Source: a virus. Taken from it: 17,578 bases of DNA. The stretch lies in the UHGV virus genome UHGV-0168812; one strand, written 5' to 3'. A program made the position numbers and the translations under genes. The notes under the pieces are model-generated. The model was not told the origin of the DNA. It did no database searches and saw only the letters and a list, made by a program, of their open reading frames with translations. This document shows, piece after piece, positions 4,585 through 11,857 of this stretch; the first letter of the stretch is position 1; each line of letters begins with the position of its first letter.

Positions 4585-6465
4585 TTAATACTCCGTCACG
4601 TTTTCCTGTCGCCACGCCTCGTCATATTCCGATTTCGGCATATTGGCGATGTAGCTATATGGCGATCCTGATTCAAGTTGCAGGAACTGGTGCGATTGCT
4701 CGTCAAGGAACAACGGGACACCACCTTCCCAACCTTCGCCGTTACGTTGTTTTTCAAGCATCAAAACAGATGCCGGAGACACCAGTAGCTGTTCGTCCTT
4801 CTCTGACATCTGTTCACCGCTTTGAACTCTCTGTAACGCTCTCTCGCGAGCCTTGTTACGCCAGATGATAAAAAGGTTGTCTGTCAGGTCTGTTATCGCT
4901 CCAGAGCCTTTTACGTCCATTTTCCCGGTTGGTTTTTCTTCGCTGTCTCCTTTTCGCGAGTGAGTAACGAGAATGACGTGGGAGTTTGTTTTGTTTTTGA
5001 AGTCGCAAATCGAGTCAACAAACGCCTTCTGCCCGTTATAGTCATCGTCGCCTATGCCACATTTCATCAGGCTGTCGATGATGAATAACTGGATCCCGTA
5101 TCGGCGGCGAGCGTAGTCGAATATTTCGATCAGCCTGTCGGCTTTCGCCGTTCCGGTCAGGCCAAACACCCAAAGTCTTTCGTCATAAAATTTAAATGCA
5201 GAGTCAATTTCCAGCACTGGCGGCATCTTGCAGCACGTCGCCTGACGGGTAAGGCGCTTAAGGAGAATACCAGGCTTCAGCTCAAGTGACGCGATGCACG
5301 TCTTCACACCCTGACGCATTGCCTCAAGTGCCATATGCCCGACAACCTCCGTTTTTCCGTGACCGTTCACCCCATTGACCAGCGTCAACTCTGCCTCACG
5401 GAACTGGAATTTATCTGCCAGAGATTCCCACGGTGGATTAAACAGATACTGCTGCTTGCCGTAGAAAGCGTTGATAGTGTCCTGGTAAAACTCTCGCGCG
5501 CTGTAGAGTTCTTCAGGATCGAAGTAGGATGCCGTGCCGATGTACTGCCAGATTTCATCCTCGGTAACACCGTTCATCAGGCATTCGTTGATGTCTTTGT
5601 ACGGCAGAGTAACAAGACGGCAACGATGTTCACCGAGTCGGCTTGCGATTTCCCTTGCGGCTTCACGACCAACATCATCAACGTCCATCGAGATGAATAT
5701 TTCCTCAAACCTGTCGAGGTTGTGATACTCAAACTCAATCCACTGTTGCTTAGCGCCTTTCCCGCCACCAAACGGCACGGATAACGCCGAGATGCCGTAT
5801 TGCGCATAGCTCATACAATCAATTTCGCCTTCGCAAAGCACAACCGCCCTCACGCCAGCGTCCAGAGCCTGCCATCCGAACAGGCAAGGTTCGCAATCAC
5901 CTTCTGCCATAATGACTTTCTTCCCGTCCGGGCGCTCAGTGCTGATTCGCTTGACCTGCAACAACTCACCATCGCGTTTGTACGGAATCACCAGAGCATC
6001 CAGTTCCCGCTCTCCATTCCACACCTTGCCGCTGACAACCTCGTAGCGCTTTACGATTTCTGGCGATATGCCACGCGATTGCAGGTACTCAAGATGGGAT
6101 TCTGTTCTGGTAACGTAGCGGGCGATTTTCTTGCGATCAGGTCTGGAGAATTTCTTCTCACGTCTGGCATCGAAATGGTGATCGTCATCCTTGATACCGA
6201 GAAATGCTTTCGCTTCCTGCATAGCCTGATGCAGGTTAATTCCACGACATGCCATCCACAAATCAAGCATGTCACCGCCGTCTCCCTCAGCGAAATCAGC
6301 CCATTTTTTCTTGCCGCTAAGGTTGACCTTAAGGCTGTTTCCCTTGTCACCGTTGACGTTACCGGCAACCCACTCATGCCCCTCTTTCTTGCCATTTGGC
6401 AACAGGTGCGGAGCCACCCTGTCAACCTGCGCCCAAAGCAGGTCGCTAAGTTCACTTGGCCTCAT
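4585..6465 (-). CDS. Bifunctional DNA primase / replicative helicase (Toprim plus DnaB-like ATPase), 626 aa
   Basis: ORF track 626 aa; Toprim-like VVLCEGEIDCMSYAQYG...FISMDVDDVGREAA; Walker A LVNGVNGHGKTE and Walker B-like LFIIDSLMK in the C-terminal half. Confidence 0.9.
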   Translation of the reverse strand: MRPSELSDLLWAQVDRVAPHLLPNGKKEGHEWVAGNVNGDKGNSLKVNLSGKKKWADFAEGDGGDMLDLWMACRGINLHQAMQEAKAFLGIKDDDHHFDARREKKFSRPDRKKIARYVTRTESHLEYLQSRGISPEIVKRYEVVSGKVWNGERELDALVIPYKRDGELLQVKRISTERPDGKKVIMAEGDCEPCLFGWQALDAGVRAVVLCEGEIDCMSYAQYGISALSVPFGGGKGAKQQWIEFEYHNLDRFEEIFISMDVDDVGREAAREIASRLGEHRCRLVTLPYKDINECLMNGVTEDEIWQYIGTASYFDPEELYSAREFYQDTINAFYGKQQYLFNPPWESLADKFQFREAELTLVNGVNGHGKTEVVGHMALEAMRQGVKTCIASLELKPGILLKRLTRQATCCKMPPVLEIDSAFKFYDERLWVFGLTGTAKADRLIEIFDYARRRYGIQLFIIDSLMKCGIGDDDYNGQKAFVDSICDFKNKTNSHVILVTHSRKGDSEEKPTGKMDVKGSGAITDLTDNLFIIWRNKARERALQRVQSGEQMSEKDEQLLVSPASVLMLEKQRNGEGWEGGVPLFLDEQSHQFLQLESGSPYSYIANMPKSEYDEAWRQENVTEY

Positions 6466-7604: not shown

Positions 7605-7901
7605 TCAGAATTGCATATCAATTTGCTTAAAATCCTCGGTGGCAGCCGGGGATTTTTTCTTTGTGATTTCATCAAGCGCATACTTAAAAGCCCTGCTAAT
7701 CGGACTGATGTCTGATGCCATTCCGAAAGCACACAAGACCGAAGCAATAAATCTCCAGTCCGTTCTGCTTATCTTCGATTCATGACAGCCAATCATCTTT
7801 GCCAGACCGCGCTGGGTAAGCGTTGACAGGTTGATGAGTAAATCTGTTTCTGCGCGATCAACGTCGCGCTGTGATAGTTTGCTGTAACTTGTTTGTTCCA
7901 T
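7605..7901 (-). CDS. cII: CII-like transcriptional activator, 98 aa
   Basis: ORF track 98 aa; HTH region and C-terminal ...[18 protein letters not shown] resembling lambda CII C-terminus; position between cro and replication genes. Confidence 0.85.
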
Positions 7902-7986
7902 TTTTTAAGATTTCCAATAGTGAATAGTTAGTTGAAAGGTATGCGTGGAAACGCATATGGCCTTAGTTGGTCAGATATATTGGGAC

Positions 7987-8033
7987 TCGCTTTGTCAGCG
8001 ACGTAGGACGAATGTCCATTGTGAAAATAGCGG
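7987..8033 (-). promoter_or_regulatory. nutR-like site: boxA-like CGCTATTTTCAC and P22-type boxB hairpin
   Basis: Minus strand reads CGCTATTTTCACA (from 8033-8020) then about 19 nt later UCGCUGACAAAGCGA (8001-7987), a 5-bp stem with GACAA loop; lies just downstream of cro stop. Confidence 0.55.
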
Positions 8034-8039
8034 TGTTAC

Positions 8040-8267
8040 TTATGCAGCCAGAAGGTTCTTTTTGCTTATTTCAAGCATTTCGCTTGCTTGATATTTGCCA
8101 CCAGAAATCTCTTCGATTTTTGATGCGTATTTCGTTTTCCCAAAAAACTCAGTCTTAGGGAGGAAGCCGTTTTTGAGCCACTTATAGACAGCTCTTTCGC
8201 TAACTCCACAAGCCTTCGCAACTTCAGGGATGCCGACACCTTTAATCGGCTCATCAAGATTTTGCAT
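8040..8267 (-). CDS. cro: Cro-like repressor (HTH), about 75 aa
   Basis: Track ORF 8040..8300; start placed at internal ATG (8267-8265) which has AAGGA upstream; MQNLDEPIKGVGIPEVAKACGVSERAVYKWLKNG... HTH; divergent from cI. Confidence 0.75.
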   Translation of the reverse strand: MQNLDEPIKGVGIPEVAKACGVSERAVYKWLKNGFLPKTEFFGKTKYASKIEEISGGKYQASEMLEISKKNLLAA

Positions 8268-8345
8268 AGGGATATCCTTTTTCGTACTTTCAGTACGCAT
8301 TATGATTGAACTGAAAGTTTTTGCAAGTGCTTTAGTATCGTACTC
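8268..8345. promoter_or_regulatory. Immunity operator region (OR-like, three dyads) containing divergent promoters for cro and cI
   Basis: CGTACTTTCAGTACG (8283-8297), GAACTGAAAGTT (about 8307-8318) and AGTATCGTACT (about 8332-8342); centres about 23-24 bp apart. Confidence 0.6.
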
Positions 8346-9053
8346 ATGGTTCAGAATGAAAAAGTGCGCAAAGAATTCGCCCAGCGGCTAGCGCAAGCCT
8401 GTAAAGAAGCTGGTCTTGATGAACATGGTAGGGGAATGGCTATAGCCCGTGCCCTTTCTCTTTCGTCCAAAGGCGTTAGCAAATGGTTTAATGCTGAGTC
8501 TTTACCGCGTCAGGAAAAAATGAATGCGCTTGCGAAATTTCTAAACGTTGATGTTGTTTGGCTTCAGCACGGCACTTCGTTAAATGGAGCGAATGATGAA
8601 GATACTCTTTCATTTGTTGGCAAATTAAAAAAAGGGTTAGTGCGCGTGGTTGGTGAGGCAATTCTTGGTGTTGATGGTGCCATCGAGATGACCGAAGAGC
8701 GCGATGGGTGGCTCAAAATTTATAGCGATGATCCAGATGCCTTTGGCCTTCGTGTGAAAGGAGACAGCATGTGGCCCAGAATAAAATCAGGAGAATATGT
8801 ACTCATTGAGCCTAACACCAAAGTATTCCCGGGTGATGAGGTGTTTGTCAGAACCGTTGAAGGACACAACATGATTAAGGTTCTTGGCTATGACAGAGAT
8901 GGAGAATACCAATTTACAAGCATCAACCAAGACCACAGGCCTATAACGTTGCCTTATCATCAAGTAGCAAAGGTGGAGTATGTAGCTGGTATTCTGAAGC
9001 AATCTCGCCATCTGGATGACATCGAGGCAAGGGAGTGGCTGAAAAGTTCGTGA
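8346..9053 (+). CDS. cI: CI-like prophage repressor (N-terminal HTH, C-terminal S24 LexA-like peptidase), 235 aa
   Basis: ORF track 235 aa; HTH in first 70 aa; C-terminal GDSMWP serine motif and downstream Lys typical of autocleaving repressors. Confidence 0.9.
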   Translation: MVQNEKVRKEFAQRLAQACKEAGLDEHGRGMAIARALSLSSKGVSKWFNAESLPRQEKMNALAKFLNVDVVWLQHGTSLNGANDEDTLSFVGKLKKGLVRVVGEAILGVDGAIEMTEERDGWLKIYSDDPDAFGLRVKGDSMWPRIKSGEYVLIEPNTKVFPGDEVFVRTVEGHNMIKVLGYDRDGEYQFTSINQDHRPITLPYHQVAKVEYVAGILKQSRHLDDIEAREWLKSS

Positions 9054-9113
9054 CTTCATCGTCACATAGCTGGTAACCAGTGGCCTGAAGAGACGTTTGG
9101 GTGAGGAGGATAG

Positions 9114-9455
9114 ATGGCGTTCACTGACCTTGAATATCAAGCGGTCAAAAAAGAAGTTCACCAATTCATTGAAAGCATAAGGCCGCCTGAACATATCCGC
9201 AATGAACTGGATATTGTTTATAGCATCAATGACCAAACGATAGATATCGGCGAACAGCGCCCCGTGTGGCAGGGCAACCCAGGTGAAACAAACATCCTGC
9301 CATCAGCAAGAATCAAGTACATACGTTCTCTGGATAGATGGAAAATCTATTGGATGCGGAAGGATATGAAATGGCATCAGTACAGTACTGAACTTTCGCT
9401 GACTGATGCGCTTGAGCTTGTGCGTGCTGACCCGGATTGCTGCTTCTTCGGATGA
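9114..9455 (+). CDS. Small conserved protein of unknown function downstream of cI, 113 aa (possibly DUF3024-like)
   Basis: ORF track 113 aa; strong SD GAGGAGG before ATG; W/Y-rich segment RWKIYWMRKDMKWHQY; family name is an unverified recollection. Confidence 0.6.
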   Translation: MAFTDLEYQAVKKEVHQFIESIRPPEHIRNELDIVYSINDQTIDIGEQRPVWQGNPGETNILPSARIKYIRSLDRWKIYWMRKDMKWHQYSTELSLTDALELVRADPDCCFFG

Positions 9456-9645
9456 GTGAAGAGACATTTTGGTGATGGATGGTCGCAGAAGTGCGGCCTT
9501 TAATGTAATCGAAGAAAAGTAATCCTTGTAAAACTTGATTTGACTGTATTGTCACAAAGAAAGGAATCAACGATCGTTTCTTGGGTCTTGATTTGTTTTG
9601 ACGATCAAATTAGTATTGCCTCATCAACTGTATGAGGCTTTTTTT

Positions 9646-10179
9646 ATGCAAACCAAAAGCTACACCATCAAAGCATTTCAGGACTTCTTACAGATGCTTC
9701 CTGAGCTTGGTATCGTCAATGATGCTACAGCCCGCAATCTCCGTGACTCTTCCCTGCGCCTTCTTACTGTTCTTGGGTCGGATTTCACCGATGCCGATAT
9801 CCGTGATTATAGCGTTGCCAACTTAGCAAGTTCGTACGCAGACTCAGCAGAAAGCAAACCCTCTGAATCATCTTTGCAGGCATACAAAAGCCGGATGCAA
9901 AGTGCTATTGATAAATTTATCTCCTACCAGAATGGTGAGATTAATGTGTCAGTTGGTGATGTAAATAAAAAAAAGGAGCGTAAAAAGATGGCACCTAAGA
10001 AGAAGGCGGTAGCTGACGTACAGGTTGGTGTAAAAACATTTGAACTGCCGATTCCATTGCGCGGAGATCTTATCGTCACCATTGGCAACCTGCCTCGCGA
10101 CCTGACAAAAGATGAAGCCAAGCGTATCAGTCTGATTGTGGAATCTTTTGCGATGATTGATGGCGGAACAAAAGAATAA
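9646..10179 (+). CDS. Hypothetical protein, about 178 aa, with central Lys-rich linker
   Basis: Track ORF starts at TTG 9598; ATG at 9646 with GAGG upstream preferred; NKKKERKKMAPKKK linker separating two domains; followed directly by a terminator. Confidence 0.6.
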   Translation: MQTKSYTIKAFQDFLQMLPELGIVNDATARNLRDSSLRLLTVLGSDFTDADIRDYSVANLASSYADSAESKPSESSLQAYKSRMQSAIDKFISYQNGEINVSVGDVNKKKERKKMAPKKKAVADVQVGVKTFELPIPLRGDLIVTIGNLPRDLTKDEAKRISLIVESFAMIDGGTKE

Positions 10180-10204
10180 AGCCCCGAGGGAACGGGGCTT
10201 TTTG
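10180..10204 (+). terminator. Intrinsic terminator ending the cI-side operon (tImm-like)
   Basis: GCCCCG-AGGGAA-CGGGGC hairpin (10181-10198) followed by TTTTT. Confidence 0.7.
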
Positions 10205-10352
10205 GGTCGGAAATATATCCAGTATTTCCGAAGTGTATGGAGGATTACCTACCGCTACACCCTTGGCAACCGCAAGCCAAGGATAGCGGTTCTCCCAACA
10301 AACTACAACCTGTTCGGGTAAACAGGCTGTATACAAAAACAGGAGAAAAGCT

Positions 10353-10487
10353 ATGGCTCACGATGTTAATCGCGATGACTTCATCTACGAACACGACAAG
10401 CCGGTTTATGTGCGCAGTTACTGCCGCATACGTTTCGGTGAGCTCGAACATGTTCGTCAGCACTTCCGCTCTTATCCGAGCTGCTGA
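10353..10487 (+). CDS. Small ORF, 44 aa, hypothetical
   Basis: AGGAG 7 nt before ATG; MAHDVNRDDFIYEHDKPVYVRSYCRIRFGELEHVRQHFRSYPSC; followed by terminator; competing 72-aa antisense ORF exists. Confidence 0.4.
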   Translation: MAHDVNRDDFIYEHDKPVYVRSYCRIRFGELEHVRQHFRSYPSC

Positions 10488-10505
10488 AAATAACTAAATC
10501 TCAAA

Positions 10506-10531
10506 CCCGGCCTCAGCGCCGGGTTTTCTTT
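10506..10531 (+). terminator. Intrinsic terminator
   Basis: CCCGGC-CTCAGC-GCCGGG hairpin followed by TTTTCTTT. Confidence 0.65.
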
Positions 10532-10705
10532 GCCTCTCGATCCCCCACCTAAAAACACATAACCAATTGTATTTATTGATGTAACTCGCTAAACCATGCA
10601 GTTCTGATCCCTGCCGCATAACCCTCATCAGCCACATTTTCAAAAATAAATTTCCTTATATATCAGAATCATACTTCGTAGAGTTAATAAATCACCAAAA
10701 TTCGT

Positions 10706-10745
10706 ACCAATAGTTCTTGATAATATCGAACTATTGGTTCATTAT
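10706..10745 (+). promoter_or_regulatory. Putative pL promoter with overlapping operator palindrome
   Basis: ACCAATAGTTC (10706-10716) and GAACTATTGGT (10728-10738) form a perfect 11-bp inverted repeat; TTGATA (10717-10722), 17-nt spacer, CATTAT (10740-10745) reads toward N. Confidence 0.45.
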
Positions 10746-10814
10746 TATCGTCATCAGCAGGACGCATTACTCACCATGGCGGTGAATATACAACGATTCA
10801 AGCAAGAATCTACG

Positions 10815-10829
10815 GCGCTGACAAAGCGC
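10815..10829 (+). promoter_or_regulatory. nutL boxB hairpin, P22 type
   Basis: GCGCTGACAAAGCGC: 5-bp stem with GACAA loop, matching the P22 boxB as I recall it; about 115 nt upstream of the N-like start. Confidence 0.55.
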
Positions 10830-10944
10830 GATAACCAAAGTGAACTTTGGGATGTGGCAAGCGAGAAAGGGTAAAACGTGAAGATGGCCCTGACTTGTGC
10901 GGCTGGTTACCGCCCACATCACCAAAGTTCATCAGGAGGTCACC

Positions 10945-11328
10945 ATGACACGCAGAACAGCTTTCAAAGGTTCATCAGCAGCTCGTCGCCGTGAACGTTT
11001 AAAGGCGCAAGCCATTGCACAGGGTGTTGAAGCTCGTGAAGAGGTTATCAGTTCAGAGAAACTTCATCGCCCTACCCTCAGTCTGGCACAGATTCAGGCT
11101 AAAGGTAAACACGAAACGCCTGAGCGCATAGAAGACGCTAAGCCAATTAAGTTCATGGCACAGGACGTGATCTGGCAACAGAAAGAATACAGACGCAATC
11201 TGGAGAGAGCGGCCATTGTGTACGCGAATGAGTTTGGACATAAGCAACCAGAAACTGGTGTATGTCTTCCAGATGTAGCTCTTTACGCAGCAGGATACCG
11301 GAAATCAAAACAACTGACGGCGAGATGA
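10945..11328 (+). CDS. N: N-like transcription antiterminator with arginine-rich motif, about 127 aa
   Basis: Start at ATG 10945 with AGGAGG upstream; MTRRTAFKGSSAARRRERLKAQ arginine-rich N-terminus; C-terminus ...DVALYAAGYRKSKQLTAR resembles the C-terminus of P22 gene 24 / N-family proteins. Confidence 0.8.
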   Translation: MTRRTAFKGSSAARRRERLKAQAIAQGVEAREEVISSEKLHRPTLSLAQIQAKGKHETPERIEDAKPIKFMAQDVIWQQKEYRRNLERAAIVYANEFGHKQPETGVCLPDVALYAAGYRKSKQLTAR

Positions 11329-11386
11329 CTTGTGTTGGTCGCCAGAAAATGAAATTAGGCAGCAAACCACTTATTTGAGGTGAGAT

Positions 11387-11857
11387 ATGACAAAATCATG
11401 GAGCGTACCTTTTCCTGAATCAGAAGCTGAACATGATGGAATGCCTGTTTTCTGGAGATTCCAGGCGACAGTTGAAGAAGATGGGATCAAAATACTCGCA
11501 CTTCAATATATAGCTTTTCATCAGACAGAGCATTATGCATGGTTGGTTCCTGCGCATTGGATTGTTAATTTTAAACCAGCACCAAATCAGTGGTTACAGG
11601 AATGGAAACAAAGGAGAAATAGATATGCAATTAAGAAAGTAGCAAAAAATGCAGAAAGATCTTTTGCATTCCCGACGAAGAAACTTGCCATTGAAAGTTT
11701 ATTGCGCCGAAAGAAATACCATTTGATGAGAATCAAACAAGATTTGGCTGTTGTATCAACTCTTGTTGATGGGATGAAAAATATTGATACATCAACACCA
11801 GATATTGAATATAACTTTGGACACAACCAAGAAACAGAAAATTGGGTATTTTATTAG
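11387..11857 (+). CDS. Hypothetical protein, 156 aa, AT-rich gene immediately after N
   Basis: ORF track 156 aa; SD GAGGTGA; no recognisable motif; lower GC than neighbours; followed by a strong terminator. Confidence 0.6.
   Translation: MTKSWSVPFPESEAEHDGMPVFWRFQATVEEDGIKILALQYIAFHQTEHYAWLVPAHWIVNFKPAPNQWLQEWKQRRNRYAIKKVAKNAERSFAFPTKKLAIESLLRRKKYHLMRIKQDLAVVSTLVDGMKNIDTSTPDIEYNFGHNQETENWVFY

Follow-up and report, generated by a model that had tools for sequence, protein, structure and literature searches.

What occupies the interval between the cI repressor gene and the putative pL promoter in the virus genome UHGV-0168812, and do its genes belong together? We addressed this question in a stretch of 17,578 nucleotides of that genome (hereafter, the window), in which three genes follow cI on the plus strand: gene A (113 amino acids), gene B (177 amino acids), and gene C (44 amino acids). 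A reading of the sequence alone had proposed that A and B form a two-gene cassette at the position that lambda uses for rexAB, and that this cassette is a candidate defence module. Our comparisons led to a different division. The interval holds two independent things, a DUF3024 gene linked to the repressor and a separate mobile unit consisting of B, a structured RNA, and C, and not one two-gene cassette. The boundaries of the slot, the linkage of B, RNA, and C, the fold of B, which resembles an integrase core-binding (CB) domain, the coding status of C, and the conserved structure of the RNA are regarded as highly probable. It was known before that accessory and defence genes use this position; the three-part unit of B, RNA, and microprotein, and DUF3024 as the anchor of the slot, were not described in the libraries searched.

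A variable slot behind cI and DUF3024

The cargo survey covered 80 IMG/VR loci encoding DUF3024, the family of gene A, together with annotated genomes. The sequence directly after A fell into 19 unrelated groups. A RuvC-like gene followed by the Stk kinase, the 933W arrangement, occupied this place in 28 loci, and the kinase matched PD-T4-6 and mad6; the B–C unit occupied it in 18 loci. The other cargoes included a pair of 162 and 206 amino acids, an NYN-domain protein (NYN nuclease), ParA-like ATPases, PDC-M63A/B, a homologue of PD-Lambda-2_B, and PDC-M24A/B, and several groups had no match at all. In pairwise BLAST against loci with other cargoes, homology stopped at 9476/9489 on the left and resumed at 10504/10506 on the right; the flanks were 93–99% identical and the insert was missing there. 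As 19 unrelated cargoes come after it, A marks the left edge of the slot. The right edge is a t_imm-like terminator just before pL. The segment of ~75 bp that contains this terminator (10504–10579) was 84–96% identical in many hundreds of E. coli prophages and follows rexB in the lambda-type ones; it has the look of a shared recombination boundary of immunity regions.

The view that this position is a genuine hotspot for accessory and defence genes was borne out, since Stk/PD-T4-6, PD-Lambda-2_B, PDC-M63A/B, PDC-M24A/B, and the NYN nuclease were found in homologous slots, and BstA in Yersinia. It also agrees with the literature, in which rexAB of lambda, hex of 434, and stk of 933W lie on the repressor transcript (PMC3564112). 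Two further observations concern the contents of the slot. In a Yersinia pseudotuberculosis prophage (L014, 3899–4663), a protein with KilA-N and BstA_C domains, of the BstA abortive infection type, precedes a B homologue in the slot between cI and N, a case of hotspot stacking. In two IMG/VR loci (L128 and L129), a strongly diverged member of the B family (173 amino acids, MAKSNVSVQAFKDFLEELMSLNIMKEATARNLK...) stands directly after DUF3024, which indicates that the family entered the slot more than once.

These distributions bear on the proposal that A and B constitute a two-gene superinfection-exclusion or abortive-infection cassette like RexA/RexB. The two genes are adjacent, on the same strand, and at the rexAB position, and A matches PADLOC PDC-S43. 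In BLAST of 9054–10760, the whole arrangement of A, B, and C was ~98.7% identical in phage SH2026Stx1 and in 6 of 5,426 complete E. coli genomes. However, about one-fifth of the 1,256 records matched in the same search include the A segment and then something else, and A and B were found together only in such near-identical copies of E. coli and Shigella. A precedes 19 different cargoes, and B relatives occur without DUF3024 in Salmonella, Yersinia, Raoultella, Symbiopectobacterium, Leminorella, and VT2-Sakai. Across related prophages the pair is thus not kept together, and its co-inheritance could not be upheld. A promoter-like site and a terminator-like hairpin also lie between A and B. RexB is a polytopic membrane protein that forms a channel. 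No RexB-like membrane segment was present in A, B, or C, whose maximum 19-residue Kyte-Doolittle windows were 0.63, 0.81, and −0.36, respectively, and PADLOC detected no RexA or RexB homologue among the three proteins, the only match being that of A to PDC-S43. The cassette is largely refuted by the distribution, and we consider it very improbable.

The features on which the following analysis depends are given below.

8346–9053, plus strand: cI repressor (Pfam Peptidase_S24, E = 4e-16; HTH_3)
9114–9455, plus strand: gene A, DUF3024, 113 amino acids (Shine-Dalgarno (SD) sequence GAGGAGG at 9104–9110)
9481–9498, plus strand: terminator-like hairpin at the end of the conserved cI and DUF3024 flank (hairpin scan and break-point comparison)
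9490–10503, plus strand: cargo insert of ~1 kb with a putative promoter, gene B, structured RNA, and open reading frame (ORF) C (BLAST break points)
9569–9616, plus strand: putative control region of B (GATC palindrome, −35, second GATC site, −10)
9618–9645, plus strand: hairpin GCCUCAU-N7-AUGAGGC (9618–9638) followed by a U7 run, with the SD of B in its 3' arm
9646–10179, plus strand: gene B, 177 amino acids (CB-like domain, basic linker, C-terminal domain)
9967–9974, plus strand: A8 tract within the B linker, prone to frameshifts (A7 alleles among relatives)
10177–10352, plus strand: structured RNA in the spacer between B and C (RNAfold z-score and covariation)
10353–10487, plus strand: gene C, hydrophilic protein of 44 amino acids, MAHDVNRDDFIYEHDKPVYVRSYCRIRFGELEHVRQHFRSYPSC (PHROG 21154, E = 2e-31)
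10504–10531, plus strand: intrinsic terminator AACCCGGCC-N4-GGCCGGGTT followed by a T-rich stretch, right boundary of the slot
10717–10745, plus strand: pL-like promoter TTGATA-17-CATTAT
10945–11328, plus strand: N antiterminator (Pfam N_peptide, E = 2e-15)

The immunity region of a lambdoid prophage, Stx-phage-like and of Traversvirus type, makes up the window, which is oriented here with pL transcription on the plus strand. To the left of cI, and divergent from it, are cro, cII, O, and P, all encoded by the minus strand. Terminator-like hairpins were about threefold enriched in 7800–11400 (10 against 3.3 ± 1.8 in shuffled sequences). The anatomy given by the sequence-only reading was largely accurate. 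All of its ORFs, hairpins, and terminators exist, within 2 nt of the coordinates that it gave, including the 113-residue gene behind a strong SD and the spacer of 190 bp before B (9456–9645). Gene B was found to encode 177 residues and not 178, and the Lys-rich linker described in it was confirmed. The GC-rich hairpin described as a terminator after B is present (10178–10201), and relatives keep its stem but not its T-run. The 44-residue ORF and the terminator behind it (10504–10525) both exist as well, but this terminator is the shared right boundary of the slot.

As judged from its sequence, gene A is an ordinary member of DUF3024/PDC-S43. It matched Pfam DUF3024 (PF11225) over its full length (residues 4–113 of 113, 108.7 bits against a cutoff of 24.9, E = 2e-31) and the PADLOC candidate model PDC-S43 (residues 1–113 against positions 1–115 of 115 in the profile, E = 7.2e-42); a sequence search of the PDB with A gave nothing below E = 0.07. 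The neighbour upstream of A was a repressor of 214–258 amino acids on the same strand, ending 10–370 nt before A, in 14 of 16 distinct contexts. All ten repressors scanned upstream of DUF3024 were Peptidase_S24 proteins, with differing sequences. A is hence described here as a conserved gene directly behind RecA-cleavable (S24) cI repressors, at the left edge of the variable slot. In the transcriptome of a 933W-type phage, cI, DUF3024, the RuvC-like gene, and stk shift expression together (PMC10789677, Table 3), which fits a single transcript, and gene A is most likely co-transcribed with cI in lysogens.

The two papers found to name PDC-S43 only list it, without a test of protection, and the label of A could reflect only its place beside a defence hotspot. 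One alternative concerns A alone: DUF3024 would be a lysogeny accessory of S24 repressors and no defence protein, for example one modulating RecA-dependent cleavage of the repressor as 434 Hex does, and its status in PADLOC would be positional only. The S24 repressors upstream are in line with this proposal and the PDC-S43 match speaks for defence; we rate the proposal as possible but not probable. By analogy, a Hex-like role in repressor stability (PMC3564112) may be an attractive alternative. If A is such a constant flank, the DUF3024-anchored hotspot beside S24 repressors in Stx-type and related prophages would be a landmark for mining defence genes, with the caution that PDC-S43 may be a bystander label.

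Outside the slot, the ORF of 156 amino acids just after N (11387–11857) matched PHROG 1636 of unknown function (E = 4e-111) and had no Pfam match; it is another uncharacterised early-left gene.

Genes B and C and their travelling unit

In almost all of the B loci examined (74 loci fetched), a small ORF began 151–201 nt past the B stop codon. The small ORFs were of three types, type 1 being MAHDVNRDDFIYEHDKPVYVRSYCRIRFGELEHVRQHFRSYPSC of the window, type 2 MANGICPKCGNACEVIFRPYKRNPDGTLSYPKRAKVFAIPVCNC, and type 3 MALKDIATKPLPAGFRWVKCRFRKARAKAGTPDSERKILDAHAYGYKCWSFPVRTKH; judging from a common C-R-x-R...G-x-x-L core, the three may be distantly related. The sequence-only reading had treated the 44-residue ORF as an appendage, but C is a real partner of B. 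B with a small ORF was found in three settings: lambdoid slots between cI and N, dinI-adjacent prophage ends, and primase-bearing islands. The segment 9712–10531 was 85% identical to a Salmonella locus that has neither cI nor DUF3024, where B and C adjoin a LexA-boxed dinI homologue at the prophage end. In Raoultella and related hosts, B and C lie in satellite-like islands carrying primase and SSB, and in Yersinia B stands directly after cI, or after cI and BstA. In the Stx2 reference phage VT2-Sakai (NC_000902; L075, 5001–5522), orf22 is a 39%-identical paralogue of B and the sole annotated same-strand gene between cI and N. A scan for B in one genome per species gave three loci only, and the scan of IMG/VR was far richer.

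Some observations were made beside these. In the Salmonella locus (L005, 4575–4600 and 4614–4853), the B–C unit is directly behind the dinI homologue, which has the consensus LexA box CTGTATATTAATACAG. DUF3024 also follows a dinI-like ORF in one IMG/VR contig (L137). Prophage ends next to dinI may serve as a second slot and swap cargo with the slot between cI and N. In VT2-Sakai, the type 3 small ORF expected after orf22 is not annotated, and the record has a GeneMark ORF on the opposite strand (5633–5794).

C was ~93% identical where B was only 45% identical. Between C and its Raoultella copy (L010), 14 of 16 nucleotide differences fell at third codon positions, with 13 synonymous and 2 non-synonymous codons; this bias to third positions and synonymous changes indicates that the type 1 ORF is certainly coding. 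The exact sequence of C was present on 681 contigs. The protein has a grand average of hydropathy of −0.90 and lacks a hydrophobic window. The type 2 small ORF gave a sub-threshold match to a treble-clef zinc finger.

Gene B had 53 close clusters, all from Enterobacterales, and a profile search extended the family to 1,112 clusters at 50% identity, nearly all of 160–200 residues with the same architecture. The sequence-only reading had found no motif that it could assign in either protein. A belongs to DUF3024/PDC-S43, and the N-terminal half of B is an integrase core-binding (SAM-like) four-helix fold. Residues 1–100 formed a four-helix bundle in the AlphaFold2 model with good confidence (block means 79–93), and the six matches of the B family to Phage_int_SAM_1/3/4/6 were all at sub-threshold E-values. 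Residues 101–130 are a disordered Lys/Arg-rich linker. Residues 130–170 are near-invariant across the family (KTFELPIPLRGDLIVTIGNLPRDLTKDEAKRIS.IVESFA) and had low confidence in the monomer model, as may be expected for an oligomerisation or partner-binding element. A sequence search of the PDB with B returned nothing below E = 0.07, and the B profile gave only a spurious match to Rpn8.

A catalytic domain (R-K-H-R-H/W-Y) is absent from B: the protein ends at residue 177, 101–177 comprise the linker and a single helix, and there was no Phage_integrase match in Pfam. B cannot for this reason be classed as a recombinase. B probably binds nucleic acid. Its N-terminal domain occurs as at least two divergent subtypes joined to the same C-terminal domain, which would fit a specificity domain. 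One relative, P0237 (320 amino acids, Ala/Arg/Pro-rich), has two tandem CB-like N-terminal domains followed by one C-terminal domain, and with it the LP.DLT..EA.R motif reaches beyond the Enterobacterales relatives. If these assignments hold, B represents a widespread unannotated family (~1,100 clusters at 50% identity, no Pfam model) that is coupled, in mobile elements of Enterobacterales, to a conserved structured RNA and a microprotein, and one member of which is orf22 of VT2-Sakai.

B is often inactivated. A7 alleles of the A8 run split the gene in three distinct contigs (L038/L079, L039/L136, and L040/L106, each with two locus identifiers), and a C-terminal B fragment of 63 amino acids was annotated on 613 contigs, compared with 662 for full-length B. 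These frequent frameshifts indicate that B is dispensable, or possibly phase-variable. Just past the A8 run lies AAGGAG-N9-ATG (9973–9990), so that the C-terminal domain of B might also arise by internal initiation.

The control region upstream of B comprises the GATC palindrome AACGATCGTT (9569–9578), a −35 element TTGATT (9588–9593), a second GATC site (9600–9608), and a −10 element TAGTAT (9611–9616). The pattern TTGATT-N17-TA(G/T/C)(T/C)AT was kept in four diverged alleles (window, Salmonella, Yersinia, and Symbiopectobacterium), and the spacer varies. The site scored 8 of 12 against the consensus, below the threshold of the scan; its conservation suggests a putative sigma-70-type promoter for B. 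GATC-containing palindromes stand at or just upstream of the promoter-like site in every B subfamily, which suggests an operator, perhaps for autoregulation by B, or sites sensitive to Dam/SeqA. In further loci (L014, L018, L047–L065, and L019/L066–L072), the palindromes read ATCGATCGAT...TTGATCGATG and GATCTTTNAAAGATC.

The hairpin at 9618–9638 follows directly. According to the sequence-only reading, it spans 9620–9638 and would sequester the SD of B. The hairpin exists with a longer stem (GCCTCAT/ATGAGGC), and the GAGG of the SD is indeed inside its 3' arm, 8 nt before the ATG at 9646. In the closest B relatives, compensatory changes preserve its stem despite the altered sequence (Salmonella CACCUCAUA/UAUGAGGUG, Yersinia UUCCUCAUCAA/UUGGUGAGGAA), and more distant B subfamilies lack it. 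Behind it the window has a U7 run, found only in this allele; Salmonella has U4, and Yersinia lacks the run. Because the −10 element directly adjoins the 5' arm, transcripts from the insert promoter would start within the hairpin and be unable to fold it. It would fold on read-through transcripts from cI and A, leading to termination, occlusion of the SD of B, or both, and transcripts from the insert promoter would escape this block. The idea of SD sequestration is therefore reasonable, but the probable purpose of the hairpin is to shield the insert from the repressor operon.

The structured RNA between B and C

The spacer between B and C had been passed over in the sequence-only reading. It forms an RNA of conserved structure, and a segment of 184 nt running from the B stop codon to slightly beyond the C start codon gave an RNAfold z-score of −7.2. 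Five helices were assigned: P1 (10178–10186/10193–10201), directly after the stop of B and with a T-run that varies between 2 and 5 T; P2 (10209–10215/10223–10229); P3, a long helix with an outer part pairing GGAG (10239–10242) with CUCC (10292–10295) and an inner part (10251–10257/10284–10290), which closes around the variable hairpin P4 (10261–10267/10276–10282); and P5 (10304–10314/10321–10331), just before the SD of C (GGAG, 10342–10345). Rfam searches of 10177–10352 gave at best 21 bits, against gathering scores of 47–90, and nothing relevant at threshold in ten loci; the region of the 9618–9638 hairpin likewise had no Rfam family. The known small RNAs of enterohaemorrhagic E. coli and its prophages (AsxR, AgvB, and the Pas small RNAs) were considered and set aside, being located at the late PR' moron site and not in the immunity region.

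The same helices recurred with different sequences across type 1 and type 2 loci. P2, for example, was found as GGAAAUA/UAUUUCC, GGUAAACA/UGUUUACC, GGGAAUA/UAUUCCC, GGAAGUUU/AAACUUCC, and GGAAGAAAA/UUUUCUUCC. In a MAFFT alignment scored for P1, P3, and P5 only, 86.6% of cells were paired, compared with 28–44% when the strands were slid, and the covariation score was above those of 500 of 500 shuffles. In a covariance-model alignment (19 sequences, 45 pairs), 82% of cells were paired, compared with at most 52% after sliding, 54 cells had changes in both partners where 22 were expected (0 of 500 shuffles), and the covariation score was 0.198 against 0.115 (0 of 500); these numbers are supportive and not conclusive, given that the sequences share ancestry and that the model shaped the alignment, and the kinship of the sequences makes the shuffle control overstate the significance. 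Realignment with the covariance model R1 did not repair the registers of P2 and P4 between subgroups. The type 3 spacers, including that of a 32%-identical B relative from a metagenome, had comparable helices with 13 compensatory pairs and several conserved U.G pairs, which points to an RNA in sense orientation. Counts of G.U and A.C in the type 1/type 2 alignment were ambiguous for the strand (13 against 17), partly through misaligned registers.

A possible function of this structure emerged from the start region of C. The translation-initiation region of C copies the 5' strand of P3, the window having GGAG..GCUAC against GGAG..GCUAU, and the Raoultella allele (L010) GGUUAACUGUUAC against GGUUAAUCGUUAU, with the common part GGUUAAC.GUUA. 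RNAalifold paired xCC at the 3' end of P3 with GGx of the C SD, and the flanking column 163:218 covaries (AU 8, UA 6). The 3' strand of P3 would pair either with the 5' strand of P3, leaving the ribosome-binding site and AUG of C free, or with this ribosome-binding site and AUG, blocking both. In L010, the two conformers were nearly isoenergetic, at −56.9 kcal/mol with SD and AUG paired and −55.9 kcal/mol with P3 closed and SD and AUG free. From such folds, the RNA appears to act as a two-state translational switch for C, for which the ON state of the window allele is inferred.

A simpler explanation is that the hairpins between B and C are plain terminators or mRNA-stabilising stem-loops without any switch, conserved through recent ancestry. 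P1 is terminator-like in the window allele, the sequences are related, alignments fitted by a covariance model lean towards that model, and the covariation terms of RNAalifold were small (−1.29 and −0.18 kcal/mol). However, P2, P4, and P5 still pair with entirely different sequences, the length of the spacer is constant across the three small-ORF types, the initiation region of C copies the P3 5' strand in divergent alleles, and the T-run of P1 is not conserved. We consider static hairpins unlikely. If the RNA does act as a switch, it would offer a compact riboregulator of ~175 nt with natural compensatory variants for the study of how small proteins of prophages are gated in lysogens.

Possible functions and relation to known systems

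Here, we propose tentatively that the unit of B, RNA, and C is a lysogen-expressed accessory module for conflicts between mobile elements, for example by excluding an incoming phage or satellite or interfering with it. In this scheme, B would supply the specificity, and C, the riboregulated microprotein, would act as the effector. As a package, an autonomous insert with a riboregulated microprotein and a role in such conflicts is plausible, if somewhat short of probable; the role in defence and the parts assigned to B and C are conjectured from the position. The basis of the proposal is that validated or candidate defence genes occupy the same slot in sister phages, that the slot is shared with BstA in Yersinia, that the unit stands in the accessory regions of primase-bearing islands, and that B is often inactivated.

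Several results weigh against it. No enzymatic or membrane domain was present in A, B, or C. B had no family in Pfam, NCBIfam, or PADLOC, and its relatives were likewise without annotation; C and all three small-ORF types had no family in the same three libraries. Some distant relatives of B (P0200) lie in chromosomal-looking contexts without a small ORF, so the family is not strictly one of mobile elements or defence. With respect to the RNA, in addition to the overstated shuffle significance mentioned above, the covariance model of types 1 and 2 did not detect the type 3 spacers, the homology of all spacers rests on a short common CCGC...TAGCGG core seen by eye, and the minimum-energy fold of the window keeps the C SD paired even when inner P3 is forced.

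The fold of B and its control region raise another explanation, in which the unit is regulatory or nucleoid-associated. B would bind DNA, silencing or tuning prophage or host genes, modulating the access of recombinases to att or core sites, or autoregulating at the GATC palindromes, and C would be a co-regulator. The CB-like DNA-binding fold with its histone-like basic linker, the GATC palindromes that overlap the B promoter in all subfamilies, and the distant relatives in chromosomal-looking contexts favour this explanation. In addition, the Salmonella module is directly behind the LexA-boxed dinI homologue, a position that holds induction regulators in Gifsy phages (PMC3121763). On the other hand, the module sits in slots that otherwise hold defence cargo, and its frequent frameshifted alleles point to dispensability. 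B is also probably not one of the Gifsy regulators irsA or gftA, because a tblastn search of the phage collection with B yielded Escherichia, Enterobacteria, Stx-converting, Salmonella (vB_SosS_Oslo), and Yersinia records only, without one that carries the name Gifsy; the gap behind the dinI homologue in Salmonella is, moreover, too short for gftA. A regulatory role is thus possible, but we are inclined to doubt it.

The occluded start of C allows a third explanation, an addiction or toxin-antitoxin-like system in which C is a small toxin held off by the leader RNA, as in mRNAs of the hok/tisB type, and B is an antidote or regulator. C is extremely constrained, its start site is occluded in the predicted folds, the module is common on mobile elements, and its compact size fits. 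However, C is hydrophilic without a membrane segment, unlike type I toxins, and neither an antisense RNA was identified nor an Rfam antisense family matched. Tandem RNA repeats as in type III (ToxIN-like) systems were not found by Tandem Repeats Finder in 9050–10760 at a minimum score of 30, and the overlap or close coupling of genes seen in type II systems is missing. Frameshifts in B are frequent and leave C intact, which would be lethal if B were the antidote and so weakens this explanation. We regard it as improbable.

Within the proposed role in conflicts between mobile elements, the most specific version is an undescribed three-part module: an integrase-derived, catalytically empty B would sense its target through the variable N-terminal domain, flip the RNA switch, and thereby release an Arg/Cys/His-rich effector of 44–57 residues that stops the invader or the cell. 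This version is speculative, and we think it unlikely in its full form. If true, defence against phages or satellites would gain a new architecture, one that has relatives in roughly 1,100 protein clusters.

Several known systems can be compared with these elements. Morons of lambdoid phages, as described in the literature of the Hendrix laboratory, are self-contained inserts of promoter, gene, and terminator. The insert 9490–10503 fits this concept, being present or absent between homologous flanks, having a conserved promoter-like site, and ending at a terminator; its own promoter is putative. It differs in having two cistrons with a conserved riboregulatory RNA between them, and the unit also occurs outside lambdoid phages.

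Compared with rexAB, hex, and stk, the interval has the same map position and orientation between cI and pL, and the ~75-bp terminator segment follows rexB as well. Gene A is common to 933W, where the order is cI, DUF3024, RuvC-like gene, and stk. In contrast, neither B nor C resembles RexA, RexB, or Stk in sequence or family, and A, B, and C have no membrane or kinase domain; B and C appear to have their own promoter and to be insulated from the cI transcript by the hairpin. PDC-S43/DUF3024 is a bioinformatic candidate only, and A is here a constant flank of the hotspot and not its cargo.

B shares its fold with the core-binding domains of tyrosine recombinases (lambda Int CB 2oxo, XerA/XerD, and IntI4), but has a basic linker and a beta-alpha domain of ~40 residues instead of the catalytic domain. 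The recombinase-derived regulators MrpR of SPbeta and SroF of phi3T are, according to their entry descriptions, chains of ~320 residues, far longer than B.

The predicted control of C resembles that of hok/mok and tisB-type leaders, in that a complementary segment upstream can mask its SD and AUG, which an alternative helix frees. Unlike the products of these systems, C is a hydrophilic protein and no membrane peptide; it has no known antisense RNA, and its unit includes a conserved protein-coding gene upstream, B.

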